The position numbers and the translations under genes are program-made. From the NCBI GenBank assembly GCA_963727625.1, contig CAVSHR010000012.1:384001-448000 (forward strand): 64,000 nt of DNA. The letters are read 5' to 3'. Below are positions 1 to 21,935 of the stretch, in pieces (position 1 is the first letter of the stretch; each line of letters begins with the position of its first letter). Under the pieces are notes generated by a model. The model worked only from the letters and a program-made list of their open reading frames with translations. It ran no database searches and was not told where the DNA came from. The stretch comes from an uncultured delta proteobacterium. GTDB taxonomy: Bacteria; Desulfobacterota; Binatia; UBA9968.

Positions 1-896
1 TCTTCGCGGAAGCGGGCCGCTTCGACTTCCGTTTTCAGGTCCCGGTTGGAGGCCGCGATGATGCGCACGTTCACTTTGACCGGCATCGTTGAGCCCACCG
101 GCAAAACAGTTTTCTCTTCGAGCACGCGCAACAGCTTCGGCTGGAGGCTCAAGGGCACCTCACCGATCTCGTCGAGAAAGATCGTGCCGCCGCGGGCGCG
201 CTGGAACAGCCCCTCTTGCGAATTCACCGCTCCGGTGAACGATCCTTTCACATGACCGAAGAGCTGGCTTTCCAGCAGATTTTCCGGAATCGCGCTGCAA
301 TTGACCGGCAGAAAGACACTGTCCTTCGACAGGCTGTTGGCGTGAATCGTGCGCGCCACGACCTCCTTGCCAACGCCGCTCTCTCCGCTGATCAATACTG
401 TCGTCGGGGTCGGCGCCACCTTCTTAATCATGTTGATGATTTCTTGCATCGCCGCGCTGCGCCCGAGCGGCCGGTCCGGACTAAACTGGCCGTCGATCTC
501 GCGCCGCAGGATTTGGTTTTCCCAGGCCAGCTTGCGGTGTGAGATCATCCGCTGGACCTTGCGCTGCACGTCTTCGAAAATCAGCGGCTTGAGTAGATAA
601 TCCTGCGCGCCCAAGCGTAGCGCTTCGATCGCCGTCTCCACGGAGGCGTGAGCCGTCATCAGCATGATGAGAGTTTGCGGTGAGACTTCCCGGGCGTGCT
701 TGAGAACCTCGATGCCACCGGCTTGCGGCATCATCAGATCGGTGAGAATCACATCCAGGTCGAGCTTGCTGATCAACTCCTTGGCCACGTTGCCGTTTTC
801 GGCCTCATGGACCTCATAGCCCTCGCCTCTCAAAAGCTCCGCCAAACTCGCCCGCGCGGTGTCTTGGTCTTCGACGACTAGAATAGTGCCGGGCAC
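1..896 (-). CDS. Sigma-54-dependent response regulator (NtrC/AtoC family), 5' part; runs off the window edge
   Basis: Manual translation from GTG at 896: receiver domain (ILVVED...DVILTDLMMP...AQDYLLKP), then AAA+ sigma-54 interaction domain (GESGVGKE Walker A, LESQLFGHVKGSFTGA GAFTGA-like loop, GGTIFLDEIGE Walker B). Not in the ORF track because the stop lies outside the window. Confidence 0.95.
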   Translation of the reverse strand, partial: MPGTILVVEDQDTARASLAELLRGEGYEVHEAENGNVAKELISKLDLDVILTDLMMPQAGGIEVLKHAREVSPQTLIMLMTAHASVETAIEALRLGAQDYLLKPLIFEDVQRKVQRMISHRKLAWENQILRREIDGQFSPDRPLGRSAAMQEIINMIKKVAPTPTTVLISGESGVGKEVVARTIHANSLSKDSVFLPVNCSAIPENLLESQLFGHVKGSFTGAVNSQEGLFQRARGGTIFLDEIGEVPLSLQPKLLRVLEEKTVLPVGSTMPVKVNVRIIAASNRDLKTEVEAARFRE

Positions 897-913
897 TTGA
901 ATTTATACCGTCC

Positions 914-929
914 TTTTCAATTGTGGGAA
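914..929. promoter_or_regulatory. Candidate activator-binding palindrome (TTTTCA-N4-TGGGAA) upstream of the response regulator
   Basis: 2 mismatches to the perfect TTCTCA-N4-TGAGAA copy at 16081. Confidence 0.35.
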
Positions 930-1086
930 TAGGTCATTCCAAGTTTCCCGAGAACGCAAATCCGCGACCACAAACCCCAAGTCATTTTTCGTGAAAAGAA
1001 TAAGCAAGCAATTGCGAAGCCAACCGGGGAAGGGCTGAAACCCGGTGCACAAATCCCTGTTTTCAGTATTTGCTATGATCGTAGGC

Positions 1087-3702
1087 TTAAGATTTTCGGC
1101 TCATCGAGCGCGGCAAAAAGAGGCGGAATTGGGTGCCTTCGCCCGGCTGGCTTTCGTAGGAAATTGTCCCGCCATGGGCGGACACGATTTGCCGGACGAT
1201 GACCAAACCTAAACCGCTGCCGTCCTTCTTGCTGGTAGAAAATGGCGCGAAAATATCGGTTCCCGGTGGAACTCCGGCACCCGTGTCGGAAATCGTGACG
1301 AGGACACCTTTGTCCTTCTGGACGGTCCCGACCGTCAACTCGCCGCCCAGGGCCATCGCTTCGATGGCGTTTTTCACCAGGTTGAGCAGTGCTTGCTTGA
1401 GCTTGTCTTCGTCGACGTCGACCACGGGTAACTCAACCGAGTCACGGCGCGTAATGACGATTCCGCGCGACTCGCAAACCGACTTTTGCAGATCAAGAAC
1501 TTCATCGATGACCACCGGTAGATGAGTCGGGCGAAAAGTAAATTCTTGCTTGCGCGATAAGCCGCGGAACTCTTGCACCAATTGATTGAGCCTGCCGATC
1601 TCTTTTTTGACGTTAGCAATATCGGCTGTGACCCGCTCATCCGGCGACGGCTGCCGCATGAGCCGCTGCTCGACAAGCTGCAACGTGAGAAAGATTCCAT
1701 TCAGCGGATTGGCTATTTCATGGCCGATCCGCGACGCCGTGCCGCCAATCGCCGCCAACCGTTCGTTCTCCACCGCACGGGCCTGCAGCTCGGCGGTTAC
1801 CGAGACGTCTCTTATGAATGCCGCGTAGTGGACTTCCTCGTCCGCTTCGATCTCGATCACCGAGAGCTCGATCGGAAATTCTTCGCCGTTTTTCCTCTTC
1901 GCCGTCACCGTCCGAATGCGCCCGATCGCATGGGGCTCGCGGGTTCGTTCGTAGCGCGCGATATAGCCGTCATGTTCCGAAGCGTAGGGCTCGGCCATGA
2001 GCATTTTCACTTTGCGGCCGACGACTTCATCGATCGAACAGCCAAAGATGCGTTCCGCAGCCGGATTAAAGACAACGATCCGTGCCAGCCTGTCGATCCC
2101 GATGACCGCGTCCTGAGTGGTTTCGATCAAACGCCGAGACCAGGTCTCGGCTTTAAGCCGCTCGGTGATATCGGCGCCGCTACAAAGCAACCCCTCCAAC
2201 CGCCCATCGGGCGCTCGAAGGATAACCCCCGACCACTCGATCTCACGTTCACGGCCATCCTTGGTCAAAATTGCGTTAATATTCCAGTTAACTTGAAGTC
2301 CGGCGATCGCGTTCTCGAACAACTTGCGGATCCGCGACCGATCGCGTTCGGGAATAAACCTCGGGAACCAATCCCTCCCCTGCGTCTCTTCGAGCAAATA
2401 ACCCGACAGCTTTTCGAAATAGCCATTGTAATAAACAACCCTCCCCTCGGGGTCGAGCAATAAGACGATCGCTTGGGCGGTATCGAGAAGACTGGTGGAA
2501 AATTGCTTTTCTCGCTGCAACGCCTGCAACGCGTGGGCTTTTTGGGTATTGGCTAACAAGAGCGCTTGGTTGATGCCTATGAGCTCATGGGCCCGTCGCT
2601 CAACTTCGCCCGTGAGTGTCTCTTGGGATCGACGCAAGCTATCCTCTAAGCGCTTTTGTTCGGTAATGTCCGTCGATATGCCGCAAATGGCGTAGAGCTT
2701 TCCCGCAGAATCGAACATCGGATATTTATTGGACAAATAGAAGTGCGGCCCATTCTCATGCGGTGCGACTTCTTCGAATTCCATCGGTGCGCCGGTCTCG
2801 ATCACTTTAAGATCATTGGCGCGAAACACCGCGGCAATTTCTGTTGGAAAAATTTCCGCGTCGCTTTTACCCGTCACATCTTCCAGACTGACACGAAAAA
2901 GCTTCTCAAACTGGTGGTTGACCGTGAGGTATCGACCATCTGGATCTTTGAGGAAGATGACTCTCGTTGAGCTATCGATGATCGACCGAAGCAAAGTTTC
3001 ACTCCGATACAACTCGTCGTCGCGCAGGCGATGGTACCACAAAGAACCTAAATAACGGGCGACGTTAGAAACCAATGCGGTCGTGCGCGGGTCGGCGAGC
3101 CGTTTTTCCGACGATTGCAAGACAATGACGCCGTAGATTCGATCCTGCGCAACTACGGGCGCCGCCAGAGCGGATTTCAAACCAGCAGCTCGGGCGACTT
3201 GGGCCGTCGGAAATTGTTCCAGAGGCAAGTTCCCCAGTTCTTCGAACCATTCCGTCTGGCGGGACTGCCAAACTTTGCCGGGGATGCCCGTTGCTATCTC
3301 CACGGCAATGAATCCGCTGAAACTCCCGAAGCGCTTTCTGGACTCTGCGTCCGGATAATAGCAATCCCTGGCCTCAAGCCGTTCACCATCGGCTGTTGGA
3401 ACCCACAGGACGCTGAGATCCCATCCGATAACGAGGCATAGTTGTTCGAGCGTCATCCGAAACGCCGAGTCAAAATCACGCCCGGCGGTTCCAAGTTGTA
3501 ACTTCTCCAGCACGAGCCAAAGCTCTTCTTCGGCGCGTTGGCGCGTGTTGATTTCAACCGCAAGCGCTTGTTTGGATTTTGCCAATTCCGCGGTTTTTTC
3601 AAGAATCAGGGTTCTGATCCTTTCGCGCACCTTTGGGTCGCGGATGTCATCAATTGGGTCATTTCCAGCCACGGCAGCCTCAGCCTTTCTTTTGATTAGC
3701 AA
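1087..3702 (-). CDS. GAF + multi-PAS sensor histidine kinase; last PAS is FixL-like (haem)
   Basis: 871 aa: GAF (GIPGKVWQS...ALAAPV), three PAS/PAC domains, H-box (IGHEIANPL), N/G boxes (NLVKNAIEA, DTGAG, GSGLGL). Third PAS has LMAEPYASEHDGYIARY, matching the FixL haem-ligand motif. Confidence 0.93.
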   Translation of the reverse strand: MLIKRKAEAAVAGNDPIDDIRDPKVRERIRTLILEKTAELAKSKQALAVEINTRQRAEEELWLVLEKLQLGTAGRDFDSAFRMTLEQLCLVIGWDLSVLWVPTADGERLEARDCYYPDAESRKRFGSFSGFIAVEIATGIPGKVWQSRQTEWFEELGNLPLEQFPTAQVARAAGLKSALAAPVVAQDRIYGVIVLQSSEKRLADPRTTALVSNVARYLGSLWYHRLRDDELYRSETLLRSIIDSSTRVIFLKDPDGRYLTVNHQFEKLFRVSLEDVTGKSDAEIFPTEIAAVFRANDLKVIETGAPMEFEEVAPHENGPHFYLSNKYPMFDSAGKLYAICGISTDITEQKRLEDSLRRSQETLTGEVERRAHELIGINQALLLANTQKAHALQALQREKQFSTSLLDTAQAIVLLLDPEGRVVYYNGYFEKLSGYLLEETQGRDWFPRFIPERDRSRIRKLFENAIAGLQVNWNINAILTKDGREREIEWSGVILRAPDGRLEGLLCSGADITERLKAETWSRRLIETTQDAVIGIDRLARIVVFNPAAERIFGCSIDEVVGRKVKMLMAEPYASEHDGYIARYERTREPHAIGRIRTVTAKRKNGEEFPIELSVIEIEADEEVHYAAFIRDVSVTAELQARAVENERLAAIGGTASRIGHEIANPLNGIFLTLQLVEQRLMRQPSPDERVTADIANVKKEIGRLNQLVQEFRGLSRKQEFTFRPTHLPVVIDEVLDLQKSVCESRGIVITRRDSVELPVVDVDEDKLKQALLNLVKNAIEAMALGGELTVGTVQKDKGVLVTISDTGAGVPPGTDIFAPFSTSKKDGSGLGLVIVRQIVSAHGGTISYESQPGEGTQFRLFLPRSMSRKS

Positions 3703-3901: not shown

Positions 3902-3917
3902 CGGCATGATGCTTGCT
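3902..3917 (+). promoter_or_regulatory. Sigma-54 (-24/-12) promoter
   Basis: CGGCATGATGCTTGCT, GG-N10-GC, about 65 nt upstream of the small ORF at 3981. Confidence 0.7.
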
Positions 3918-3980: not shown

Positions 3981-4094
3981 ATGGCAAGTGAGGCTGAACT
4001 CTTTTACTTGGTGTTGCTTACACTATTGACTCTGCTTGTTCACTTGATTCTTTCGACGAAACACCGCCGCCATGACAAGGATTCCCACGCTTGA
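3981..4094 (+). CDS. Small single-pass membrane protein (37 aa)
   Basis: GGAGG RBS before ATG; MASEAELFYLVLLTLLTLLVHLILSTKHRRHDKDSHA; hydrophobic helix and basic tail. Below the ORF-track cutoff. Confidence 0.6.
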   Translation: MASEAELFYLVLLTLLTLLVHLILSTKHRRHDKDSHA

Positions 4095-5419: not shown

Positions 5420-5435
5420 TGGCACGGCTTCTGCA
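5420..5435 (+). promoter_or_regulatory. Sigma-54 promoter for the zinc-ribbon/CBS/hemerythrin/hydrolase/nrdJ operon
   Basis: TGGCACGGCTTCTGCA, GG-N10-GC. Confidence 0.75.
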
Positions 5436-5522
5436 CATTTGTCGGCGCGGGATGCCGTGGCAGGATGTCAACACACGGCAGTCTAATTTCGGCCTACGGC
5501 AAGATCAGGGAGCACAAATTTT

Positions 5523-5696
5523 ATGCCCAAATACGATTTTCGCTGCGCCCGATGCAATAGAACTTTTGAGCTGAGCTGGTCGCTCGCAGAATATAACAAA
5601 CGGATCAAAGAAAAAAATAAATGCCCAAAGTGCGGTAGCACGAGAGTAGTCAAGATGGTTTCTCTAGTGCAGGTGAATACCGCGAAGAAGAGTTAG
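5523..5696 (+). CDS. FmdB-family zinc-ribbon regulatory protein (57 aa)
   Basis: MPKYDFRCARCNRTFE...KCPKCGSTRVVK; two CxxC motifs and the typical MPxYxxxC start. Not in the ORF track. Confidence 0.88.
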   Translation: MPKYDFRCARCNRTFELSWSLAEYNKRIKEKNKCPKCGSTRVVKMVSLVQVNTAKKS

Positions 5697-5735
5697 TAGA
5701 CAGTTTGATCGGAAGTTTGCCTGGAGCACCCATCG

Positions 5736-6167
5736 ATGAAAAATGCCGCTGCAACAACCAAACCGGAATCAACCGTCGCGGCCATTATGACCACCGAGCT
5801 GGTGAGCTTGAAACTGAACGACACGCTTCGGCTCGCCGACGATTTGATGAATTTGGCGGATATCCGCCATTTTCCGGTCTTGGACGGCGATCGCCTGGCC
5901 GGGATTATCAACCAAAGCGACTTGCTCCACGCTTCGATGGCTTCGCTGATCCACCGTCCCAACGACTCGCCGCGCGCGGCGTTGGGCGCAGTTGCGGTTA
6001 GAGACGTGATGAAGCCAGCAACGACCGTCGCCGCCGACACCTCGCTCAACGACGCCGCGCGAATCATGGTCGATCGCGGCGCCGATTGCCTGCTGGTGTT
6101 AAAGGATCAAAAGCTTGTCGGCTTGGTGAGCCGCACCGACTTGCTGCGTGCCATGGCCCGCGGCTAA
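5736..6167 (+). CDS. CBS-domain protein
   Basis: Paired CBS repeats (IRHFPVLDGDRLAGII; LLVLKDQKLVGLVSRTDLL). Confidence 0.92.
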   Translation: MKNAAATTKPESTVAAIMTTELVSLKLNDTLRLADDLMNLADIRHFPVLDGDRLAGIINQSDLLHASMASLIHRPNDSPRAALGAVAVRDVMKPATTVAADTSLNDAARIMVDRGADCLLVLKDQKLVGLVSRTDLLRAMARG

Positions 6168-6218
6168 AGCCTGTAGAACGCGCTTGCGGGCGGTGGAAAA
6201 ACCAACGGAGGAAATTTT

Positions 6219-6848
6219 ATGCTTGTAGAAAACCGTATGACCAAAGAGCCGGTCACGATCGAGGCAGACGAATTGCTGATCCGCGCGTCGCATAAGATGC
6301 GTTCGGGTGGCTTTCGCCGCCTTCCCGTGGTCAGGGGCGGCAAGCTCATCGGCATCGTCTCCGAACGGGACCTGCGTGAGCACCGCGGCGACTTGGAGCA
6401 TGTCAAGGTGAATGGCGTGGTGACCGAAAATCCGCTCACTGTTAGCCCAGGAACGACGGTGGAAGAGGCCGCCCGGATCATGATGGAACACCAAATCGGC
6501 GGGTTGCCGGTTATCGAAGACGGCCGGTTGGTCGGCATTATCACTGTCACCGATGTCATGAACGCTTTTCTCGAAATGATGGGTGCCTCGAAGGGCGGCA
6601 GCACGCGCATCGATTTCGTCTTGGAAGGCGAAGAACATGGATTTGTGGAGGCCTCCCGCGTCATTGCCCGCGAGGGTGGCGAAGTCTTAGGAATCGGCAC
6701 CTATCGCGACAAACTGGGGGATAATTCGATTTGCTATCTCCGCTTGATCGCTGGCGACGCCGATAAGATCGCCCAGGCGCTCCGATCCAGCGGGTACGAT
6801 GTCCTGGGCGTACATCGAATCGGTGGTGGTGCCAAGGCAATGGACTAA
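6219..6848 (+). CDS. CBS + ACT domain protein (AcuB-like)
   Basis: MLVENRMTKEPVTI, FRRLPVV, IGGLPVIEDGRLVGIITVTDV, then an ACT-like C-terminus. Confidence 0.88.
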   Translation: MLVENRMTKEPVTIEADELLIRASHKMRSGGFRRLPVVRGGKLIGIVSERDLREHRGDLEHVKVNGVVTENPLTVSPGTTVEEAARIMMEHQIGGLPVIEDGRLVGIITVTDVMNAFLEMMGASKGGSTRIDFVLEGEEHGFVEASRVIAREGGEVLGIGTYRDKLGDNSICYLRLIAGDADKIAQALRSSGYDVLGVHRIGGGAKAMD

Positions 6849-6867
6849 TCCTTTCAGGAGGTGCGCC

Positions 6868-7296
6868 ATGTCGTTGCAAAATTTCTGCCGCAAGCCACTG
6901 GTGCGAATTTCGCTCGATACCAACATCGCCGAAGCTTGTCACCTGATGGAGCAGAACAACGTCGGCTGTCTAATCGCCGAAAAAGAAGGCAAGCTCTGCG
7001 GCATCATTACCGATCGGGACATTGCGCTGCGGGTCGCCGGCGCGCAGCGAGATCCCCAGTCAACATTGGTCAAGGAGATTATGACTCCTGATCCGGTGCG
7101 GATCTCGGTGGACAAAGACCTGCGCCAGCTCACCGCGCTGATGCACGCTTACCACGTGCGCCGAGTGCCGATCGTCAACGGTTTCGACACGACTTTGGGC
7201 ATTGTCACTTTCGACGATCTCATCGCCCAGTTGGGCGATGAGATGTCGGACATCGGCAAGGCCATTTCGGAAGAATTTCCGCAGGGCAATGCGTAA
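6868..7296 (+). CDS. CBS-domain protein (Hrp1/Rv2626c-like)
   Basis: AGGAGG RBS before ATG 6868; GIITDRDIALRV and VRRVPIV CBS motifs. Confidence 0.92.
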   Translation: MSLQNFCRKPLVRISLDTNIAEACHLMEQNNVGCLIAEKEGKLCGIITDRDIALRVAGAQRDPQSTLVKEIMTPDPVRISVDKDLRQLTALMHAYHVRRVPIVNGFDTTLGIVTFDDLIAQLGDEMSDIGKAISEEFPQGNA

Positions 7297-7347
7297 GCCG
7301 CGTGTCTGTGCCGGGATCGCTATGGGCATTTTCACGGGGGCCGGGCC

Positions 7348-7857
7348 ATGAGTAACATCAGTGAATCGCTCAGAGAAGAGCACGGCGAGATCGCCAAAAA
7401 GATCGAGCTAATGCGCGTCACGGCGGATGCCGTCAACGCCGCAGCGCCCGAAACCCTGGCCCGCGACATCGATAAGATCGACGACTTTCTCCTGCATCAG
7501 TTGCTGCCCCACGCCTTCGCCGAAGAGGAAGTGCTCTATGCCGTGGTCGCAAAAATATTTGGCACGCCGCGCGCCACGACGCCCATGAGCTTGGACCACG
7601 CCGAAATCAGCCGCCTCGCCGAGCAACTCAGGAAGTTGCGGGGGCAGCTTGCCGTTGGCGCCCTCGTCACCGAGAGCGCCAACGATTTACGCCGCGTGCT
7701 TTACGGTCTTTACGTTCTGACGAAAACCCACCTCGCCAAGGAAGAAGAAGTTTATTTGCCGTTGCTCGACGAGCATCTGAGCGAGCAAGAAGCCCATAGG
7801 CTGCTGCACAAGATGGCAGACATTGCGCACCGGGTCGGCGCCCGTTCGGATCATTAA
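7348..7857 (+). CDS. Hemerythrin/HHE-domain protein
   Basis: EEH, HAFAEEEVLY, DHAEI and HLAKEEEVYLP HHE motifs. Confidence 0.9.
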   Translation: MSNISESLREEHGEIAKKIELMRVTADAVNAAAPETLARDIDKIDDFLLHQLLPHAFAEEEVLYAVVAKIFGTPRATTPMSLDHAEISRLAEQLRKLRGQLAVGALVTESANDLRRVLYGLYVLTKTHLAKEEEVYLPLLDEHLSEQEAHRLLHKMADIAHRVGARSDH

Positions 7858-7912
7858 AAACTCTCGCGGCCGGGCATTCACAACCGGGCGACTTTAAACC
7901 TAAGAGGCAAAA

Positions 7913-8590: not shown

Positions 8591-8663
8591 AATTGCGTCG
8601 GGCAGACTTATGGGGGGGCGCTCTGCCGTCGCGCCGATTTGGGACTCACTAAACGCGCCGGAA

Positions 8664-12710: not shown

Positions 12711-12795
12711 CGGTCCCTCCTTGATTGGCGAATTTAACGTTTAACCAAACGGCGCCGAGCGCCGGCATTGTCATCGGGCGTCCGCCACCTTGAGA

Positions 12796-13077: not shown

Positions 13078-13157
13078 GAAATCGTCTGGCTACTGGCGAA
13101 CACCGAAAGTAGCCGTTATATTAAACGTTAGTCTTATCAGCGAGTGAAAGGAGGTTT

Positions 13158-13598: not shown

Positions 13599-13643
13599 TC
13601 GAATCCATAGGCGGGCTCGCGGATCGCACAGTCCGCGCGCGCA

Positions 13644-15374
13644 TCAATCGAATGCCTGCTCGATGAGGTAATGATCCGCGACATGCGCGAGGATCTCCGA
13701 TCGGTCGGGCATCGCACCGATGGGAATAGTTCGCTCTAGCTTGCGCAGGCCCCTGGCGAGCTGTTGATCGCCGATCACGTCTCGGACCCAGCGCGAAAAA
13801 TCCCCGGCCCTGAGATGGTACTGCAACGAAGCGGCTGGCGCCGCTTGGATCGCCCGGTAAAACTCGTTCATGTTATAGGCCGTCAACGGTTCCTCCGTGA
13901 GCTGGAAGCGAAATGCTCTTCCCTCGGCCAAGCGCACGTCGGCATATTTGTGCGCATGATGAGCATGGCGCGTGATACGCTCGCCCGGGATGAATAACTG
14001 CCATGGCTGGGCGGCGCCATTTGCCATCAGCAGTCCAGCCCAGGGCGATTTCAAATCATCGAGCGCCGCGTGCGCGTCAACCCCGGGCCCGGCATGGGCC
14101 TGGAGAATCTTGGTCACGAAGTAACGCTCTTCCTCCACTCTGGTACTGGTGAGCACATGGGCGCCGATGGAATTGTAAGCCTCGCCGGCGAGGAGGCTCG
14201 GCCGATAAGTAGCCAAGCCGATATTTCCGGTCACACTGCCGAGATGACGCAGACATGGGCTTTGCTCGTAAAAAAAATAGTGCGCCTCATCGACCAGGAT
14301 CCAATGGGGCATCCCGCTGGCCGCGCGGATTTCTTCCAGGGCGGCAAGCAGCTGGTCGACATAGTTGACCTGATCGCCGGTTTTAAGCGCCGCCAGGGTG
14401 AACACAATGCTGAGCGGTTCGGTCCTGAGTAAGCGCACCGCCGCGGCCGGTGGAGGCAGTGCGAGATCATAGCCGAAGGTGACGATTTTGCTGCGTTCTC
14501 CCATTTGCGCATAGTCGCCTTCCGGGTCGATGATGCAGATTCGGTAACCTACCTCGATGAGTTGTTCGGCGAGCAGGCCGGCAATCCAAGACTTTCCCGA
14601 GCGCGGATCGCCGCTGATCATGAGGTTGGTGCCGGAGTTGGGCAGGGTTACGGGGGCGCCGGCTTGGCTCCGGCCCAAGGTGACCACCCGTCGCGGCGGA
14701 TTCGCCGAGATTCCGCCGCGTTCGATCAAGCGACGAATAAAGTGCGCCACCCCGGCGCCGCCGGGTTGCGAAACCCGATCATCGGCCAACGCTGACACCG
14801 CCAGTGTCGCGTCCCGAGCGGCGACGCCGATCTCGGCGCCGATCAGCATTGGAATATCATTTTCGGCGTCGCCGAAGGCAACCATATTGCGTTCCGAGCG
14901 GCCGAGCTCGTCGAGCGCACGGCGCACGCCCACCGCCTTGTTGATGCCGCTCGGCAGGAGCATCAACGCGGCGCGATTGAAAATCATCTGTCCGTCGATG
15001 CCGAAACGGCGGATCAGTTCGAGCAGCTTGCCTGCGTGTTGTTCCCAGGTCCCGACGATCACTGCACCGGTGTGAAAAGGCACCCCGTGGGCGCGCAGTT
15101 CGCCGAGAAAACGTTCCGGCGGCGGCGTGCCGATCTGGATGGTCCGGCCAAGCTCGCAAAGATGGATCACCGCGCCGTTTTCGGCGACCACGCCGTCAAA
15201 AGGCGCGAGCTCTTCACAAGCCCGCTGGACATCTTCGAGGACTCGCCCGGTCACCAGCAAGGTGACGATACCTTGCGCACGCGCCGCCGCCAAAGCGGCG
15301 TACAATTCGGGCGCGGGATGGCCGTTGGTGGCGCCCGTCCCGTCAAAATCGCAGGCGATGACTCGGCAATACAT
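13644..15374 (-). CDS. HAD-IIB hydrolase fused to a HerA/DUF87-like P-loop ATPase and a C-terminal DUF5752-like domain
   Basis: DFDGT, GDAENDIPM (HAD); GDPRSGKS Walker A, IIDPEGDY, ILVDEAHY Walker B; YHLRAGDFSRWVRDVIGD. Confidence 0.85.
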   Translation of the reverse strand: MYCRVIACDFDGTGATNGHPAPELYAALAAARAQGIVTLLVTGRVLEDVQRACEELAPFDGVVAENGAVIHLCELGRTIQIGTPPPERFLGELRAHGVPFHTGAVIVGTWEQHAGKLLELIRRFGIDGQMIFNRAALMLLPSGINKAVGVRRALDELGRSERNMVAFGDAENDIPMLIGAEIGVAARDATLAVSALADDRVSQPGGAGVAHFIRRLIERGGISANPPRRVVTLGRSQAGAPVTLPNSGTNLMISGDPRSGKSWIAGLLAEQLIEVGYRICIIDPEGDYAQMGERSKIVTFGYDLALPPPAAAVRLLRTEPLSIVFTLAALKTGDQVNYVDQLLAALEEIRAASGMPHWILVDEAHYFFYEQSPCLRHLGSVTGNIGLATYRPSLLAGEAYNSIGAHVLTSTRVEEERYFVTKILQAHAGPGVDAHAALDDLKSPWAGLLMANGAAQPWQLFIPGERITRHAHHAHKYADVRLAEGRAFRFQLTEEPLTAYNMNEFYRAIQAAPAASLQYHLRAGDFSRWVRDVIGDQQLARGLRKLERTIPIGAMPDRSEILAHVADHYLIEQAFD

Positions 15375-15398
15375 CTGCGCTCCGAGCGACGGACTGAT

Positions 15399-15884
15399 TC
15401 ATGCCGCCCTGCGCTTGGGCAGGTCGACGAGCTGGACGACCTGGGGTTTGACCAGCGCCAGGAAATCTTTGTAACGCAGCCGCATGGTCTGCACGTGATC
15501 GCCAGCATTGAAATAGATAAATTCATCCCTTGCCAGCGCCGGATCGACGATCACCCTAAGTCCGAAAAGGTTTCCAAAGGGAGGCATAGCGCCGGGCTCG
15601 CAGCCGGGAAAAACCGCCGTGAATTCATCCTCTCTGGCACAACGCACGCGGCTCGCGCCCAGACTCGCGCGCGCCGTATCCAGATTGATTTTGTGATTGC
15701 CGTCAATGACCGCCATCACCAACGTCCCGTCCACTTCGAGCATGACGACCTTGGCCAGCTCGTTGCCCGGTATATGTTGGCTGGCAGCAATTTCCTGCGC
15801 GGTGTAAACTAATGAGTGGGTGAAGACTTCGTATGGTACCCTTGCTTCTTCAAGCAGCTCCGTTAATTTTTTTTGAATCGCCAT
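15399..15884 (-). CDS. YbaK/EbsC-family aminoacyl-tRNA deacylase
   Basis: TAQEIA...LAKVV, FPGCEPGAMPPFG, YFNAGDH. Confidence 0.92.
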   Translation of the reverse strand: MAIQKKLTELLEEARVPYEVFTHSLVYTAQEIAASQHIPGNELAKVVMLEVDGTLVMAVIDGNHKINLDTARASLGASRVRCAREDEFTAVFPGCEPGAMPPFGNLFGLRVIVDPALARDEFIYFNAGDHVQTMRLRYKDFLALVKPQVVQLVDLPKRRAA

Positions 15885-15984
15885 GGTTTTTTCCTCCTTT
15901 TCACTGCAACGTTTTCATCGAGACGAAAAAAGACCGGCCACTGCCGCCAATTAAGGGAATCAAAAACCCCTGTTTCTGTTTAAG

Positions 15985-16000
15985 GGCAAGAACCATGCCG
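15985..16000 (-). promoter_or_regulatory. Sigma-54 promoter for ybaK-HAD/ATPase
   Basis: Minus strand CGGCATGGTTCTTGCC. Confidence 0.7.
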
Positions 16001-16080
16001 CCTCCAACAATCAAAGGCACGCGTAATTTCCTGATTAACCGAGGCCTAGCGTTCCACGGAACAACGCATAAAGTCGGCGC

Positions 16081-16096
16081 TTCTCACCGCTGAGAA
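16081..16096. promoter_or_regulatory. Perfect palindrome TTCTCA-N4-TGAGAA, candidate enhancer for the NtrC-type activator
   Basis: ttctcaccgctgagaa, between divergent sigma-54 promoters (15985 and 16207). Confidence 0.55.
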
Positions 16097-16206
16097 TGCC
16101 AACAAACGATTTTCCCACGCTTGCAACGAGGCACTGACGGAAAATTTACAGCTGGTCAAAGTTTGCAGAATATTGATGGGTTGTGACTCGTTGAACAAAC
16201 CCGCCG

Positions 16207-16222
16207 TGGCACGTCTCTTGCC
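16207..16222 (+). promoter_or_regulatory. Sigma-54 promoter for hpf-CSD/usp
   Basis: TGGCACGTCTCTTGCC, near-consensus. Confidence 0.8.
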
Positions 16223-16272
16223 GCGTTTTGTAGCTGGCGCAGGGCGCCCAGAGCAACGAAGGAGGGAAGTCT

Positions 16273-16896
16273 ATGAAAATTCCTCTGCAGATCACCTTTC
16301 GCAACATGCCGCCTTCCAATGCGATCGAAGAAAACATCCGCGAGAAAGCGGCCAAACTCGATTCGCTCTTTGACGGCATCATGAGCTGTCGAGTCATCGT
16401 CGAGGCGCCGCACCGCCACCACCATAAGGGCAAAGCCTACGAGGTGCGCATTGATATGACCGTGCCGGGCGGCGAGCTGGTGGTCAACCGCGCGCCCAAG
16501 CGCCTCGACGCCGCGAAATCTGTGAGTCCCGAAGAACTGGAAAAGGTTTTGACCGAAAGCCATGAGCCGAGCAAGCACGCCGCGCATGAAGATGTCTATG
16601 TCACCATCCGCGACGCCTTTAACGCTGCCGGCCGGAAATTGCAGGATTATGCACGGCGCCGCCGCGGCAAAACAAAAACCCACGAAGCCGCGCCGCTGGC
16701 GCGGGTGGTCAGGCTTTTTCCCGTTGAAGATTACGGATTTATTGAAACGCCGGATGGACGGGAGCTGTACTTCCACAAAAACAGCGTGCTGCATCCCGGC
16801 TTCGAACGCTTGGAAGTCGGCGCGGAGGTCTATTATGCCGAGGAGCTCGGTGAAAAAGGGCCGCAGGCGAGCACCGTGCGCGCGGTCGCCCGCTAA
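16273..16896 (+). CDS. HPF/RaiA ribosome-hibernation factor fused to a cold-shock domain
   Basis: LQITFRNM...SCRVIVEAPHRHH...DVYVTIRDAFNAAGRKL; DYGFIETPDGRELYFHKNSV...GEKGPQASTV. Confidence 0.92.
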   Translation: MKIPLQITFRNMPPSNAIEENIREKAAKLDSLFDGIMSCRVIVEAPHRHHHKGKAYEVRIDMTVPGGELVVNRAPKRLDAAKSVSPEELEKVLTESHEPSKHAAHEDVYVTIRDAFNAAGRKLQDYARRRRGKTKTHEAAPLARVVRLFPVEDYGFIETPDGRELYFHKNSVLHPGFERLEVGAEVYYAEELGEKGPQASTVRAVAR

Positions 16897-16917
16897 ACTG
16901 GAGTAAGCAGTCTCGCC

Positions 16918-17730
16918 ATGTTTCAGGAAGTCTTAGCTTGCCTCGACGGCTCGGCGCTGGCGGAAAAAATCCTGCCCTTGGCGCGCGCGCTGAGCGCGTC
17001 GAAGGGAGGCAAATTGGTCCTGCTGCGCGTCGTCGCGGACAGTGCCGAACTTTCCGCCGAGGAGGAATCCTTGCGCGCCAGCGCGCGCCGGTACGGCGCG
17101 GAGCTGCGCTGGGTGGTTTCCGCCGATCCGGCGGCGGCCATCGGCGCCGAGCTCGAGCGTGGCCCGCAAAGGATCGCCGCGCTCACCACCCACGGACACA
17201 GCGCTTGGGTCGAAGCGATTTTGGGCGGTGTCGCGCTGCGCGTGATCCGTGAAGCCAAGCGCCCGGTGGTGATTTTTCGGCCGCTGGACGAAGACCGCGA
17301 AGCGCCGGAAAAAATCGATCTCATCGCGGTCGCGCTGGACGGCAGCCGGTTTGCGGAAAAGATTCTCCCGCACGCCGTGACCGCCGCGCAGTGTTTATCA
17401 GCGCGGCTACAATTGCTCCAAGTATCGCCGGTCGTGGCCGTGCCGGCGGACTTAGCCAAACAAAAAAGGCTCGACGTCCATGAAGCATCCTATCTTCATC
17501 GCAAAGCCGGCAAGATCGAAGCAGCCAACCGCATAGAGGTTCAGTGGGAAGTCCTGCACGGTAATCCCGCCGAGGCCATCTGCGGCTATCTCAAGGGTAT
17601 GCCGGACACTCTTTTGGCAATGACCACCCACGCGCGCAGCGCCATAGAGCGGACCGTGCTCGGCAGCGTCGCCGGCTCCTGCTTACGCCACGCCAGCGTG
17701 CCGCTGCTACTCCACTGGCCGCATCATTAA
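16918..17730 (+). CDS. Universal stress protein (tandem USP)
   Basis: CLDGSALAEKIL, ALDGSRFAEKIL, MTTHARS...LGSVA. Confidence 0.9.
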   Translation: MFQEVLACLDGSALAEKILPLARALSASKGGKLVLLRVVADSAELSAEEESLRASARRYGAELRWVVSADPAAAIGAELERGPQRIAALTTHGHSAWVEAILGGVALRVIREAKRPVVIFRPLDEDREAPEKIDLIAVALDGSRFAEKILPHAVTAAQCLSARLQLLQVSPVVAVPADLAKQKRLDVHEASYLHRKAGKIEAANRIEVQWEVLHGNPAEAICGYLKGMPDTLLAMTTHARSAIERTVLGSVAGSCLRHASVPLLLHWPHH

Positions 17731-17929
17731 AAACGGATGAAGACGAAAGCATGAGGGATGAAACCATCCGAGCGACGGCCATCGAGCCTCAACTTCATCC
17801 TTGTGCTTTCAACACCCGCGCTCGCCGGGGCGTAGGCTGCAATCCCCTTGCGGGTCAACGGTTCGACGGTTTCGGGCGCCAAGGCGCCGCGCCGCTCGCC
17901 AGGGAAGGTTTCGACCGGCTTGCCGATGA

Positions 17930-18301
17930 TCATGCCGCCTGCCTATGGCTGGAGCGACGGCGGCGAGTGCCCGCCTCATCGGGAGCGCTTCCGGACAGTT
18001 CCCGAAACCCGCGGCGGATGTAACTCGGGTCGAGATTCAACAAATCACAGACGTTGTTGAATGAGAACATCCACTCACTGTCGTTCGCCATAATCCACGC
18101 TTCGGCCTCGTGAAATTGTTTTTTGCCCTCCCGGTCCTGCGCCCCGCTGAACTTCCGATAGCTTTGAATTGCGTCTTCGAGCAACGCGATCAACAGAGCC
18201 TTTTCCGGCTCCAGATGCTCGCCGCGACGCATCGTGTCGAAATATTGCTGCGCCAGTGAGCTGTCTTTGCCCAGGTTTGTCACTGTGTTTTCTCTCATCA
18301 T
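17930..18301 (-). CDS. Conserved hypothetical protein
   Basis: AAGGAAGG RBS; EPEKALLIALLEDAI...EAEAWI...FSFNNVCDLLNLDPSYIR; own sigma-54 promoter. Confidence 0.8.
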   Translation of the reverse strand: MMRENTVTNLGKDSSLAQQYFDTMRRGEHLEPEKALLIALLEDAIQSYRKFSGAQDREGKKQFHEAEAWIMANDSEWMFSFNNVCDLLNLDPSYIRRGFRELSGSAPDEAGTRRRRSSHRQAA

Positions 18302-18356
18302 GGAGCACCTTCCTTCCTTTTCCCGCGCGCCGGCATGTCACCCTGGAATTAGAAAA

Positions 18357-18372
18357 CGCAACCGATGTGCCA
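18357..18372 (-). promoter_or_regulatory. Sigma-54 promoter
   Basis: Minus strand TGGCACATCGGTTGCG. Confidence 0.75.
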
Positions 18373-18498
18373 GGCAAATTGCAGCGGTTAATCCGGTTTT
18401 GTTCGCAAGCTTGCAAGGATTTCCCCCTCGACTTCTTGCGATTGCGAATTCCGCTCGCGATGCAAGCTTAAATACTAAAGGATATTCAGAAACTTAGG

Positions 18499-18514
18499 TG
18501 GCATAGGCATTGCG
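18499..18514 (+). promoter_or_regulatory. Sigma-54 promoter for hsp20-lon-dksA
   Basis: TGGCATAGGCATTGCG. Confidence 0.75.
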
Positions 18515-18591: not shown

Positions 18592-19020
18592 ATGGCAAAG
18601 AAACAAAATGACTTGATCTCGTTTCCGATGCATCTGCCGCGCGAGGTGGAACGGCTGTTTGATGAAATCATTCATCGCCCCTGGGGATTTTGCCGCGATA
18701 TTCGCGGTTGGAATCCTTCTGTGGATCTCTACGAGACTGCCGAAGCCTATATTCTTGAAGCCGATCTTCCCGGCGTGAACCGCAACGACGTCAAGGTCGA
18801 AGTCCAAGACGATGATCTGGTCTTGCAGGGCTGGCGCTCTCTGGAACAACGCGATGACCAAGGCCAGTTTCGCACCATGGAGCGCTCATCCGGCCAATTT
18901 CTGCGGCGCATGAAACTTCCCGAGTCGGTCGAGAAAGAAGCGATTGAAGCTGAGTTTCACGACGGCGTGTTGCGCGTCATCATTCCGAAATCCAAGGCGC
19001 GGAGAGGAGAAACAAAATGA
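18592..19020 (+). CDS. Hsp20/alpha-crystallin small heat-shock protein
   Basis: WNPSVDLYET...ADLPGV...ERSSGQFLR...AEFHDGVLRVIIPK. Confidence 0.95.
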   Translation: MAKKQNDLISFPMHLPREVERLFDEIIHRPWGFCRDIRGWNPSVDLYETAEAYILEADLPGVNRNDVKVEVQDDDLVLQGWRSLEQRDDQGQFRTMERSSGQFLRRMKLPESVEKEAIEAEFHDGVLRVIIPKSKARRGETK

Positions 19021-21476
19021 TCGGGCACACAAGGCTGGCGACCGACCACGCCGCAACAAAAACGGCCGCGCCCGGGCGCGAACTCAGCGCCGCGGATTTA
19101 CGCTTCGCCAGCAAGCTCGCCGGCGATTTCATATCGACGCGTGATTTGAGCCGCGCGACCGAATTCGTCGGGCAGGAGCGCGCGCTGGCGGCGTTGGAGT
19201 TGGGCTTGGGCGTCGGCGGCAACGGCTACAATATTTTTGTTTCCGGATTGACCGGCGCCGAGAAGTTGGAAACCGTTCGGCGTTGGGTCGCCGAGCGGGC
19301 GGCTTCAAGCGCGACACCGGGCGACTGGGTGTACGTGCACAATTTTAAACAGCCGGACGCGCCGGGGGCGATTCCTTTAAAGCCGGGCGAAGGTCAGCGG
19401 CTCAGACAGATGATGCAAGATCTGGTCAAGACCCTGCGCGAGGAGTTGCCCAAGGCCTTTCGCCAGGAAGCCTTTGACAAGGAGAAATCTTCCCTCACCG
19501 AGAAGTACAACAATCGCGCTCAGGAGCTCAACGGGCAATTTGCCACCCTCGCCCGCGAGCGCGGCTTCCAGATGCAGACGAGCAACCGGGGGCATATTTA
19601 TTTCGTCCCGCTGCTCGACGGCAAGCCGTTGCAGCGGCCGCAAGATTTCGCAGCGCTATCCGAGGAAGAGCGCCGCGGAGTCGAAAGACGCCAGCAGGAG
19701 CTCTCGGTCGAGATGGAGCGGCTGGCGCGCAAACAACAGGAAATTATGCGGGAGATGGAAGAGGACATTCATAAGATTGAACGGCGTTTCTGCGAGAGTC
19801 TGCTCGCGCCGATCCTGCAGCGGATTGAATACGAGCTGGGCAACGATGAGGTCAATTTGTATCTCGCAGAAGTGAGAAAGCATGTGTTGAACAATCTCGA
19901 CGATTTCAAGGAAGCGCCGGCGGCGCCCTTTGCCATGCCGTTTTTGCCGATGCCGCGCGAGCGCGATCCCTATCTCGAATACGAGGTGAACGTCGTTGTC
20001 GACAACGCGCAAAGCAAAGGCGCGCCGATCATCGTCGAAAGCGCGCCGACCTATCTCAACCTGTTCGGCACCATCGAACGGGTCGTCGATCGTTTCGGAC
20101 GCGTCGTGACGAACTTCACGCGCATCAAGTCCGGCTCGTTTTTGCGCGCCCACGGCGGCTATCTGATTTTCAGCTTGGAGGACGCGATCACCGAGCCGGC
20201 GGTTTGGAAAGTCTTGAAACGGACGCTGCGCAGCGGTCGCATCGAAATGGAAACCTACGAACCGTTTGCGCTGTTTTCCGCTTCCGGACTCAAGCCGGAG
20301 CCGGTCAAGGTGAGCACCAAGCTCATCGTCGTCGGCAGCCCGCTGCTGTATCACCTGCTCTACTCCTGGGACGATGAGTTTCACGAGATGTTCAAGATTC
20401 GCGCCGACTTCAATCCGGTAATGCGGCGTGATCAGGAGCACCAACTCGCCTACGCGCAATGGGTCGGTAATCTTTGCAACGACGAAGGGCTGCCGCACTT
20501 CGATCGCAGCGGCATCGAGCGACTGATCGAGTTCGGCGTGCGTCAAGCCGGCGACCGCGACAAGGTGCTGGCGTCCTACGCGGCGATCGCCGACCTGGTG
20601 CGTGAAGCGGCGTTTTGGGCGCGCAAGGAAGACCGCCAGTTGGCGTCGGCGCGCCATGTCGAAAAAGCGCTCGATAACCGGGTGTTCCGCTCGAATCGGA
20701 TCGAAGAGAACATTCGCGAGCTGATCGCCAACGGCACCATCCTGGTCGACATCACCGGCGAAAAAGTCGGCCAGGTCAACGGCCTCTCGGTGATGGAAAT
20801 CGGCGGCTACGCCTTCGGCCGGCCGAGCCGGGTCACCGCCAGCGTCGGCATGGGCCAGGCCGGGATCATCGACATCGAACGCGAGTCGCACTTGAGCGGC
20901 AGCATCCACGAAAAAGGGGTCCTGATCTTGGCGGGTTATCTGCGTAACCGCTTTGGCCAAGCCCAGCCCCTGGCGCTTTCCGCTGCTCTCTGCTTCGAGC
21001 AGTCCTACGGCGGCGTGGAAGGCGATAGCGCGTCCTCCACCGAACTCTACGCCCTGCTGTCGCGCCTGGCCGACACGCCGCTGCGCCAGGAGATCGCCGT
21101 CACCGGCTCGGTGAATCAGTGGGGCGAAATCCAAGCCATCGGCGGCGTCAATGAAAAAATCGAGGGTTTTTACGACGTCTGCGGCGTGGTCGGCCTCACC
21201 GGCAGCCAGGGCGTGATGATTCCCGAAGCCAACGTGCGCCACCTCGTGCTGCGCCGCGACGTCATCGAAGCCGTGGCGCAAGGACGATTTCATATCTATC
21301 CGGTGCGGACTATCGACGAAGGGCTCGAGATTCTCACCGGCATTCCGGCCGCGGGCGTCCCGGGGACCGAATCGGTCGCCGAAGCGGCGGCGCGCCGGCT
21401 CAAGGAATTGGCCGTCGGACTCAAAGAATTCGCGGTGCAGCCACACCATAACGGCGCGGCTGAACAAAAAATGTAA
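19017..21476 (+). CDS. Lon-family S16 protease, LonC-like
   Basis: GQERA, DWVYVHNF, FEQSYGGVEGDSAS (catalytic Ser), GGVNEKIEGF (Lys); degenerate Walker A (SGLTGAEK); ATGA overlap with hsp20. Confidence 0.9.
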   Translation: MIGHTRLATDHAATKTAAPGRELSAADLRFASKLAGDFISTRDLSRATEFVGQERALAALELGLGVGGNGYNIFVSGLTGAEKLETVRRWVAERAASSATPGDWVYVHNFKQPDAPGAIPLKPGEGQRLRQMMQDLVKTLREELPKAFRQEAFDKEKSSLTEKYNNRAQELNGQFATLARERGFQMQTSNRGHIYFVPLLDGKPLQRPQDFAALSEEERRGVERRQQELSVEMERLARKQQEIMREMEEDIHKIERRFCESLLAPILQRIEYELGNDEVNLYLAEVRKHVLNNLDDFKEAPAAPFAMPFLPMPRERDPYLEYEVNVVVDNAQSKGAPIIVESAPTYLNLFGTIERVVDRFGRVVTNFTRIKSGSFLRAHGGYLIFSLEDAITEPAVWKVLKRTLRSGRIEMETYEPFALFSASGLKPEPVKVSTKLIVVGSPLLYHLLYSWDDEFHEMFKIRADFNPVMRRDQEHQLAYAQWVGNLCNDEGLPHFDRSGIERLIEFGVRQAGDRDKVLASYAAIADLVREAAFWARKEDRQLASARHVEKALDNRVFRSNRIEENIRELIANGTILVDITGEKVGQVNGLSVMEIGGYAFGRPSRVTASVGMGQAGIIDIERESHLSGSIHEKGVLILAGYLRNRFGQAQPLALSAALCFEQSYGGVEGDSASSTELYALLSRLADTPLRQEIAVTGSVNQWGEIQAIGGVNEKIEGFYDVCGVVGLTGSQGVMIPEANVRHLVLRRDVIEAVAQGRFHIYPVRTIDEGLEILTGIPAAGVPGTESVAEAAARRLKELAVGLKEFAVQPHHNGAAEQKM

Positions 21477-21576
21477 AAATCGACGGTCAGGGCGCCGGCG
21501 GCGCAAACGCAACGAACGGAGCGGCCCGCGCGAAGGCAGGTCAACCAAGATGATCAAAACCTTGGGGGAGGTTACG

Positions 21577-21935
21577 ATGAAGAATTATAAGAATAAGATA
21601 ATGAAGTCTACGATAAGCGCTTGAGAAAACGTCGAGACGAAATTTTGCTGACGCTCGAACATGTGCGGAAAGAGCAGCGCACGGTCAACGATAATAAAGA
21701 CTGGATCGATCACGCCGCCTACCGAAGCCGGGTCGAATTGCTCGACAACCTGACCGACTGGTACGTCAAAGAGGCGGCGCGCATCGACGGCGCCCTCAGC
21801 CGAATTGCCGAAGGCCTATACGGTGTTTGCCTCGGTTGCCGCGAGCCGATTGCGCCGGATCGTCTCGAGACCGCCCCCGAAGCGGCTTTCTGCGCCGAGT
21901 GCCAGAACAGTAGAGAAGAACTGACGGCTGCGTAA
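21577..21935 (+). CDS. TraR/DksA C4 zinc-finger protein; 5' end apparently frameshifted
   Basis: YGVCLGCREPIAPDRLETAPEAAFCAECQ. The RBS-preceded ATG (21577) is out of frame with the body (TAA at 21594); TTG 21621 is the first in-frame start. Confidence 0.8.

Follow-up and report, generated by a model that had tools for sequence, protein, structure and literature searches.

Introduction

The control of NtrC-family regulators by PAS-based sensing of O2 or redox state is represented by the NifL–NifA and NtrY–NtrX systems, in which NifL carries FAD and inhibits NifA by binding to it, NtrY is a membrane kinase, and the regulons concern nitrogen fixation and denitrification, not a dormancy kit. The DosR system of Mycobacterium tuberculosis relies on the GAF-haem sensor kinases DosS and DosT and on a regulator of the NarL/LuxR type, and its promoters are not known to be sigma-54 dependent. 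Those loci of its regulon that bear no gene name presumably encode universal stress proteins (USPs), a CBS pair, an M50-CBS protease, RtcB, NAPRTase, a PRTase/dienelactone hydrolase (DLH) and an HPF-like protein. The present work deals with a stretch of 64,000 nucleotides from an uncultured member of the Binatia (hereafter, the window; G000:C12:384001-448000), which belongs to a genome of 6.6 Mb and 98% completeness. At the left end of this window, a FixL-type multi-sensor histidine kinase lies directly upstream of an NtrC-type activator, and both proteins probably govern a two-component, sigma-54-dependent low-oxygen regulon, as judged from sequence evidence. Throughout the text, C12 coordinates are contig positions, G0xx designates the genomes of the genus set, with G000 being this genome, and L0xx designates fetched loci.

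Haem-based sensing is joined to sigma-54 activation in Myxococcus xanthus, where the four-protein NmpRSTU system transmits the signal from the globin-coupled haem kinase NmpU, which is active with O2, to the signal-inverting hybrid kinase NmpS and from there to the NtrC-like NmpR (PMC11841059). NmpR binds two GCGCA-N5-TGCGC sites, 14–15 nt apart, upstream of sigma-54 promoters and activates, with hypoxic induction, its own operon (whose first gene is a CBS gene) together with USP, cbb3 oxidase, hemN and hemerythrin genes, in a regulon of 7 promoters and 23 genes (PMC11841059). A preliminary description of the window had presented its system as undescribed, a term that proved too strong, since NmpRSTU already joins a haem sensor, an NtrC-like activator, sigma-54 and CBS, USP and hemerythrin genes (PMC11841059). 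In the literature searched, of partial coverage, no pair of a FixL-type kinase and a sigma-54 activator was found described as driving such a regulon. Regarding DosR, Table 1 of the corresponding article includes nrdZ, hspX, ctpF, fdxA, Rv0079, Rv0571c, Rv0573c and Rv2623–Rv2631 (PMC3095998).

The Kinase–Activator Pair

The arrangement claimed in the preliminary description, i.e., a kinase with a haem-type PAS motif at 1087–3702 placed directly upstream of an NtrC-type activator, is confirmed by the domain assignments and by the alignment with FixL. The motif LMAEPYASEHDGYIARY is situated in the third PAS domain of the kinase (PAS3), which matches FixL and directly precedes the HisKA/HATPase core, and the best match of this core is ZraS, the partner of a sigma-54 activator. 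In the alignment of PAS3 with the haem domain of Bradyrhizobium FixL (1dp6_A), 56 of 127 residues are identical (approximately 44%, by our own count), and the His of EHDGY in PAS3 is aligned with the His of RHDSY in FixL, the proximal haem ligand of the rhizobial protein. Moreover, PAS3 has Arg at both positions that are mutated in FixL entries, namely R206 (2cmn, R206A) and R220 (1y28, R220A), and both residues (B. japonicum numbering) are invariant in an alignment of eight sequences (A1). The distal Arg of FixL is the residue that binds O2. The haem-PAS motif, including the proximal His and the residue aligned to the distal Arg, is kept in all 11 loci of relatives that were scanned, and the third PAS of the kinase is predicted to bind haem. 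Orthologous kinases in L010, L012 and L014 (genomes G017, G011 and G024) contain a tandem pair of FixL-type haem-PAS domains.

The activator gene is intact and starts 191 nt downstream of the kinase on the same strand. Its product comprises the Pfam domains REC (PF00072), Sigma54_activat (PF00158, 233 bits), AAA_lid_14 and HTH_8 (PF02954, a Fis-type helix-turn-helix, HTH), as well as a GSFTGA loop, the motifs GESGVGKE and DEIGE, and an Asp in LTDLMMP. It displays, then, what characterizes enhancer-binding proteins (EBPs) of the NtrC family: a REC domain with a phospho-acceptor Asp, an AAA+ domain with a GAFTGA-type loop and a Fis-type HTH. The genome encodes rpoN (Sigma54_AID, 65 bits) and 27 full-length Sigma54_activat genes, of which this is the only one on C12. 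A palindrome of the kind described below precedes the start codon of the activator, and strong sites are also found in the kinase–activator gap of L029, L031 and L034; autoregulation of the activator via the site at 914–929 is possible.

Sigma-54 Promoters of the Window

Promoters were searched as TGGCAC-N5-TTGC with at most one mismatch. The window contains nine matches, a raw count that is not significant (mean of 5.2 in shuffled sequence, with 6 of 100 shuffles reaching nine), and the genome is rich in such matches, with a total of 380 and several other dense regions. These figures would suit a commonplace collection of stress genes whose sigma-54 promoters have nothing to do with each other and whose adjacency to the kinase–activator pair is fortuitous, an explanation to which we give very little credence: the linkage is kept through reshuffling of gene order, including a metagenome-assembled genome (MAG) labelled Acidiferrales, the promoters are conserved, and the shared site, its 31-bp spacing and the control sets, all of them detailed below, argue against chance. 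The position of the matches is also informative. Five of the nine are located within 5420–18513, where approximately 0.75 would be expected at the genome density of 0.057 per kb, and all five are intergenic and aimed into a gene or operon. They lead the operon for Zn-ribbon, CBS, hemerythrin, DLH and ribonucleotide reductase (RNR) proteins, the USP operon, the operon that encodes a fusion of HPF with a cold-shock domain (HPF-CSD) and a tandem USP, the gene of a 123-aa open reading frame (ORF), and the Hsp20–LonC operon. Together with the weaker sites of YbaK and of a 146-aa ORF, they bear out the earlier claim that -24/-12 promoters stand ahead of most of the cluster genes. A further good promoter site is found just left of the window, ahead of a NAPRTase–PRTase operon. 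Two traits of a sigma-54 regulon are observed, namely the presence of rpoN and the conservation of GG-N10-GC promoters upstream of the targets in relatives.

A Shared Palindromic Site Upstream of the Promoters

Upstream of these promoters lies a palindrome, TTC[G/T]CA-N4-TG[C/A]GAA, which in most cases is present in duplicate, with 31 bp from start to start, at about 40–70 bp upstream of the -24/-12 elements. Footprinting of the HPF-CSD/YbaK intergenic region revealed that both -24/-12 elements are conserved along with two upstream blocks. A first k-mer enumeration gave best 10-mers in four of five regions, a level also reached by 2 of 30 shuffles, and a plain count of TTCTCA-N4-TGAGAA in the window gave mild enrichment only. 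Expectation-maximisation (EM) was then applied to the upstream regions of 31 sigma-54-like promoters of C12:195–410 kb with six seeds, three of which (one of them unrelated to the motif) led to the same palindrome, at 13.1 bits and in 26 of the 31 regions, whereas six control runs, each on 31 promoter regions drawn at random from the rest of the genome, produced seed-dependent motifs of 6.3–7.5 bits.

A site was called where the position weight matrix (PWM) gave a score of 9 or more between -25 and -200 of a promoter. By this measure, a site is present upstream of 22/31 promoters of the island (C12:195–410 kb) versus 7/349 elsewhere in the genome, although the first of these figures is partly circular, the PWM having been trained on the island. 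The downstream control regions contain a site at 0/31 and 3/349 promoters, respectively. Every promoter of the cluster in the preliminary description has upstream sites. The site is checked independently by its spacing, by the relatives and by the control sets. Spacing was left out of PWM training, and the 21 neighbouring site pairs that lie at most 80 bp apart genome-wide include 13 at exactly 31 bp and 17 at 30–32 bp, with 11 of these 17 on C12. A sigma-54-like promoter aimed away from the pair is found within 230 bp of 14 of the 17, versus 207 of 2000 random positions. Each of the 13 pairs spaced at 31 bp has such a promoter, and the three pairs at 32 bp, which have none nearby, are probably due to chance. 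The 15-nt spacers inside the site pairs differ between promoters, which disfavours an origin of the site from a repeat element. A box of the FNR/CRP type was considered for the palindrome and rejected, as we infer from the architecture (tandem sites about 95–125 bp upstream of -24/-12) and from the tracking of the activator ortholog. Further to the right, a near-perfect copy of the palindrome, TTCGCAAAATTGCGAA, occupies 49515–49530 with a score of 14.0 and has no sigma-54-like promoter within 230 bp.

Linkage and Site Distribution in Relatives

The haem-PAS (at least 64% identity) is present in 15 of the 25 genomes searched, G000 included, and all 15 also carry an ortholog of the activator (at least 77% identity), which is found in 18 of the 31 genus genomes. 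In six of the seven contigs of relatives that were fetched (the exception being G008), the pair adjoins the primase-like gene and/or the Zn-ribbon–CBS–hemerythrin–DLH operon, and the relatives keep the order Zn-ribbon, three CBS genes, hemerythrin and DLH. In L028, L029 and L034, the last of which is the MAG labelled Acidiferrales with an activator 68% identical, the pair adjoins HPF-CSD, USP and YbaK instead, with YbaK and HAD-HerA beside HPF-CSD and with Hsp20 (L028 and L029), DksA and the 123-aa ORF (L028) or RNR, HAD-HerA and the 123-aa ORF (L034) as extra neighbours. Thus, the same families stay by the pair despite a reshuffled order, which is the pattern expected for a regulator and its targets. 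Loci derived from the unpublished genome G005 comprise L005, L110 and, apparently, L028; no conclusion rests on G005 alone, and without it the evidence of reshuffled synteny consists of L029 and L034.

The region upstream of HPF-CSD allows the promoter and the site to be compared with the presence of the activator. Among genomes with the ortholog, the promoter is kept in 14/14 (and in L029 and L034 as well) and the site in 13/14, mostly as two copies 31 bp apart, while the genomes without the ortholog have the promoter in 2/6 and the site in 0/6; with G005 set aside, the counts for the former group are 13/13 and 12/13. The pair of sites at 16081–16127 has the same spacing in most genus genomes that have the activator. 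Moreover, the loci of the orthologous pair contain 8–14 sites per 21 kb, with 31-bp pairs present, as against 0–4 sites and no pairs in seven FixL-like loci without the ortholog. In a broader sample of 80 FixL-like loci, an activator directly follows the kinase in eight, six of which belong to this lineage and two to Gemmataceae (L053 and L086, with an activator 41% identical right after the kinase). The kinase–activator pairing recurs, therefore, outside this lineage.

Extent and Content of the Predicted Regulon

The regulon is estimated at about 28 promoters with sites and about 60 ORFs, extending from C12:201 kb to approximately 21.9 kb of the window, plus a few elsewhere; the ORF numbers derive from a crude ORF caller. 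The left border assumed in the preliminary description was wrong, as the architecture of promoters and sites begins at about C12:201 kb, and the regulon turns out approximately ten times larger than was supposed. To the right of about 22 kb, the window has no combination of site and promoter save a weak one near 33.0–33.1 kb. The NAPRTase–PRTase operon just left of the window is part of the island.

The contents were obtained by Pfam searches on the ORFs downstream of site-bearing promoters. In addition to the genes of the window, the island contains two PFOR-type 2-oxoacid:ferredoxin oxidoreductases (one of them with a CBS gene), a BcrAD-type activase, a CBS and CoA-binding protein, a phosphorylase, a P-type cation ATPase, FeoA and FeoB, together with an Acs-like enzyme with E1 and E2 subunits, a MacB-type ABC system, FmdE, an SBF-family transporter and a CDF-family cation-efflux protein. 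It also includes an M50 protease that bears a CBS domain, a CBS gene accompanied by an L,D-transpeptidase and an M15 peptidase, Hsp20 near USP paralogs, DUF2267 with DnaJ, a tandem USP, ferritin, cytochrome c, archease, RtcB, a Band7 protein and DUF1488. On contigs other than C12, the genes that have paired sites ahead of them encode a fatty-acid desaturase together with a dihaem cytochrome c, a TctC-like protein and a small protein of the LuxR type. As predicted from these families, the content fits a switch to O2-independent metabolism combined with a survival programme.

The broader proposal is put forward tentatively, with the chances slightly against it: the regulon of one FixL-type kinase and one NtrC-type activator (about 28 promoters and 60 genes, mostly in a 200-kb island) would rank among the largest so far predicted for a single sigma-54 activator, with a content converged on the DosR regulon, in an uncultured and presumably aerobic soil phylum.

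Proposed Mechanism

The computed elements on which a mechanism can be built are the domain architectures, the haem-pocket residues, the linkage, the promoters and the shared site with its distribution in the genome. When O2 leaves the haem of PAS3, the kinase would autophosphorylate, as deoxy-FixL does, and pass the phosphate to the adjacent NtrC-type activator, which would oligomerise on the palindrome pairs 31 bp apart (start to start) and open the -24/-12 promoters through ATP hydrolysis. Haem binding, O2 as the signal together with its sign, phosphotransfer and the identity of the site binder are predicted steps of this scheme. The targets would serve, on the one hand, O2-independent metabolism (two PFOR-type enzymes, B12-dependent RNR, FeoAB and the BcrAD-type activase) and, on the other hand, a survival kit (USPs, CBS proteins, Hsp20s, HPF-CSD, LonC, DksA, RtcB–archease, M50-CBS, P-type ATPase, ferritin and NAPRTase/PRTase). 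The wiring that the preliminary description had proposed, from the haem-PAS kinase through the EBP and sigma-54 to a DosR-like gene set, is supported in this form by the conserved linkage, the promoters and the shared site.

Besides the circularity mentioned above, a number of observations weigh against this scheme. Two of them concern the kinase, which holds a GAF and two more PAS domains besides the haem-type PAS, and whose PAS3 has an FG-loop that reads AIGRIR versus IIGIGR in FixL, differing at I215, I218 and G219. Both would be compatible with the same wiring under another signal, i.e., NO, CO or redox state, or with a dominance of the GAF and the first two PAS domains, in which case the pair would respond to energy or nutrient stress. 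We consider this unlikely, given that the proximal His and the residue aligned to the distal Arg are retained in the relatives as stated above and that the targets include functions specifically related to O2 (B12-dependent RNR, PFOR-type enzymes, FeoAB, hemerythrin, rubrerythrin/ferritin, cytochromes c and fatty-acid desaturase), even though four sensor modules share the kinase, two haem-PAS domains in some orthologs suggest that sensor tuning varies, and many targets (USP, Hsp20, HPF, Lon and DksA) are general stress proteins. A second FixL-like kinase exists at G000:C9:315936-318278 (L142:5936-8278, minus strand), with a haem-PAS 66% identical and a HAMP domain; it adjoins NMT1-like and NUDIX genes, has no adjacent response regulator and might feed the activator of the pair as an additional input.

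The remaining points concern the activator and its sites. In G013 (G013:C207:2173-5300), only about 680 bp separate the activator ortholog from the primase-like gene, too little for the kinase to fit, and that genome (93% complete) gave no match to a haem-PAS of this type. G012, G016 and G024 form a look-alike group without the site at HPF-CSD, though G024 has the activator, and G004 and G016 lack the ortholog yet keep a sigma-54 promoter at HPF-CSD. Furthermore, the genus genomes are not independent of each other. A REC-less paralog of the activator on C5, 56% identical and with a similar HTH, is also a candidate binder of the same motif. This paralog heads a small cluster with CBS, USP and rubrerythrin-like genes at C5:209–237 kb (L131 and L132), where sigma-54 promoters have similar palindromes upstream.

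The site is attributed to the activator of the pair because it is the sole activator on C12 and because the site tracks its ortholog (13/14 vs 0/6). Alternatively, the palindrome could belong to another regulator, such as the C5 paralog, a non-EBP factor or a further member of the 27 activators; the FixL-like pair would then govern no more than a few neighbouring operons, or have other targets altogether. The number of activators, the similar HTH of the paralog, the similar sites flanking C5:209–236 kb and the two genomes that retain a promoter at HPF-CSD without the ortholog lend this alternative some weight; nevertheless, it is judged improbable, more so than a different signal. REC-less matches of the paralog type (54–59% identity, AAA+/HTH) occur in G007, G012, G016 and G021, which lack the site at HPF-CSD, whereas this site follows the REC-containing ortholog; besides, sites lie directly before the gene of the ortholog in G000, L029, L031 and L034. 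Moreover, a tandem arrangement with some three helical turns between the sites, ahead of -24/-12 elements, is a typical enhancer architecture, like that reported for NmpR (PMC11841059). Control by the FixL-type kinase and the adjacent NtrC-type activator is the reading judged more likely here.

Features of the Window

The features of the window are collected in Table 1. The gene families named in the preliminary description (three CBS and three USP genes, hemerythrin, DLH, class II RNR, HPF-CSD, Hsp20, LonC-like and DksA-like) are all found where it had placed them, to which the primase-like, Zn-ribbon, HAD+HerA-like and YbaK-type genes and four ORFs without a family are added here.

Table 1. 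Genes, promoters and upstream sites of the putatively regulated part of the window (positions in nt of the window).
Feature	Position	Strand	Remarks
NtrC-type sigma-54 activator, N-terminal 298 codons	3-896	-	Runs left of window to C12:383547; 449 aa total
Upstream-site-like palindrome TTTTCAATTGTGGGAA ahead of activator start codon	914-929	.	PWM 10.6
Soluble multi-sensor histidine kinase, 871 aa	1087-3702	-	Pfam: GAF, PAS, PAS, PAS (haem-type), HisKA, HATPase_c
FixL-type haem PAS (third PAS)	1759-2160	-	1dp6_A E 4.4e-28, gapless, 127 aa
Sigma-54-like promoter and 37-aa hydrophobic small ORF, between primase-like gene and kinase	3902-3917; 3981-4094	+	Read from sequence
Primase-like (PriCT_1/AEP-type), 371 aa	4158-5273	-	PriCT_1 E 7.8e-6, weak PriS match
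Tandem upstream sites TTCGCACTCTCGCAAA and TTCTTACTTCTGAAAA	5314-5360	.	31 bp start to start; PWM 10.0, 9.6; second kept in G017, G023
-24/-12 promoter, Zn-ribbon/CBS/hemerythrin/DLH/RNR operon	5420-5434	+	TGGCACGGCTTCTGC; conserved in G017, G023
Zn-ribbon	5523-5696	+	First gene of operon 5523-10430
Three CBS-pair genes	5736-6167, 6219-6848, 6799-7296	+	Pfam
Hemerythrin	7348-7857	+	Pfam
Dienelactone-hydrolase-type (DLH)	7913-8590	+	Pfam
B12-dependent class II RNR	8448-10430 (start uncertain)	+	NrdJ_Z TIGR02504, 632 bits vs cut-off 400
143-aa ORF, signal-peptide-like N-terminus	10571-11002	-	No Pfam/NCBIfam match
Tandem USP	11311-12252	-	Pfam
USP	12213-12710	-	Pfam
-24/-12 promoter, USP operon	12797-12811	-	GGGCACGGCCTTTGC
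Upstream site common to divergent USP and 146-aa-ORF promoters	12934-12949	.	PWM 9.1
Weak -24/-12 site, 146-aa ORF	13062-13076	+	TGGTAAACCGATTGC
146-aa ORF, together with the weak -24/-12 site of the preceding row	13062-13598	+	No Pfam/NCBIfam family
HAD-phosphatase and HerA-like ATPase fusion	13644-15374	-	Pfam/NCBIfam
YbaK-type tRNA_edit	15399-15884	-	Pfam/NCBIfam
-24/-12 promoter (weaker match), YbaK/HAD-HerA operon	15986-16000	-	CGGCATGGTTCTTGC; conserved in 4 aligned loci
Tandem upstream sites TTCTCACCGCTGAGAA and TTCCCACGCTTGCAAC	16081-16127	.	31 bp start to start; PWM 12.5, 6.6
-24/-12 promoter, HPF-CSD operon	16207-16221	+	TGGCACGTCTCTTGC, exact match
HPF and cold-shock-domain (CSD) fusion	16273-16896	+	Pfam
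Tandem USP	16918-17730	+	Pfam
90-aa ORF, end of HPF-CSD operon 16273-18023	to 18023	+	–
123-aa ORF	17930-18301	-	No Pfam/NCBIfam family
-24/-12 promoter, 123-aa ORF	18358-18372	-	TGGCACATCGGTTGC, exact match; identical 15-mer in L028
Tandem upstream sites TTCGCAAGCTTGCAAG and TTCTTGCGATTGCGAA, between divergent promoters	18402-18448	.	31 bp start to start; PWM 11.8, 8.2
-24/-12 promoter, Hsp20-LonC operon	18499-18513	+	TGGCATAGGCATTGC
Hsp20	18592-19020	+	Pfam
LonC-like protease	19017-21476	+	Pfam
DksA/TraR-type zinc-finger	21621-21935	+	Pfam

The primase-like gene occupies the same position, between the kinase and the CBS operon, in several relatives. Among Atlas clusters, the nearest comprises 401 members, with Binatota as the commonest taxon, and the next ones are phage primase-like; the gene may be a domesticated primase-polymerase in a dormancy locus. 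The possibility that it is a mobile element splitting the kinase from the cluster was rejected, its placement being conserved in relatives. Between this gene and the kinase, the promoter at 3902–3917 has no upstream site and its membership in the regulon is uncertain; a small ORF similar to the one that follows it is preceded by TGGCATCGAGTTTGC in G003. Homologs of the 143-aa ORF are located beside the kinase in G014, G003, G017, G019 and G023, and about 15 paralogs of the 123-aa ORF are scattered over the genome. The HPF-CSD fusion is found in 25 of the 31 genus genomes and is commoner than the kinase–activator pair. Inspection of the sequence upstream of the DksA-like gene found no promoter of its own. 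Just right of the end of the island, an 85-aa ORF (22616–22873, minus strand) matches only the C-terminal domain of acyl-CoA dehydrogenases and may be a gene fragment or have a miscalled start.

Significance and Comparison with Known Systems

If the proposed regulation is true, the FixL module would have changed partners, with an enhancer-binding protein taking the place of FixJ, and the genes of the dormancy kit would form an ancient and portable set that is hooked to different oxygen sensors across phyla. The DosR-type survival kit would then recur beyond Actinobacteria under quite different control, and the recent Myxococcus finding that haem-based O2 sensing can lead to sigma-54 activators would be extended to a simpler, one-step FixL route. 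The analysis also provides a testable regulatory map for an uncultured soil phylum, composed of a sensor, an activator, a DNA site with its spacing and about 28 promoters, and it suggests how putative aerobes survive anoxic spells in soil.

The resemblance to the DosR regulon is one of content and not of homology of the control system, which consists here of a PAS-haem kinase and an NtrC-type activator. The gene families overlap in class II RNR (nrdZ), Hsp20 (hspX), a cation ATPase (ctpF) and others (PMC3095998). The overlap is wider than the preliminary description had noted and presumably extends to RtcB, M50-CBS and NAPRTase.

The likeness to FixL/FixJ of rhizobia resides in the sensor, given that PAS3 clearly belongs to the FixL type (E 4.4e-28, the His as well as the two Arg residues being kept) and directly precedes HisKA/HATPase. 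However, the partner is of the NtrC type (REC, Sigma54_activat and HTH_8) and not FixJ (REC with a LuxR/GerE HTH), there is no FixK step, the kinase has an extra GAF and two PAS domains as well as a divergent FG-loop, and the targets are sigma-54 promoters. Membership in the FixL group, assessed from domain architecture, holds for the sensor domain and fails for the system, as the partner is not FixJ.

NmpRSTU (PMC11841059) and the present system, as predicted, have in common a haem-based sensor that acts through an NtrC-like activator on sigma-54 promoters and a set of CBS, USP and hemerythrin genes. Both show paired palindromes with a GCA...TGC core, separated by 14–15 nt in one case and by 15 nt in the other, and the likeness to NmpR rests on these sites; in addition, Nmp is autoregulated, and a site precedes the activator gene here. 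A match to Protoglobin (PF11563) was not found in this 98%-complete genome, and a single FixL-type kinase adjoins the activator in place of the globin-coupled NmpU and the hybrid kinase NmpS. Unlike NmpRSTU, the system described here is composed of one FixL-type kinase and one activator, with an N4 spacer in the palindrome and about 28 promoters. On this comparison, NmpRSTU is the closest published system, and the present regulon is predicted to be several-fold larger and DosR-like.

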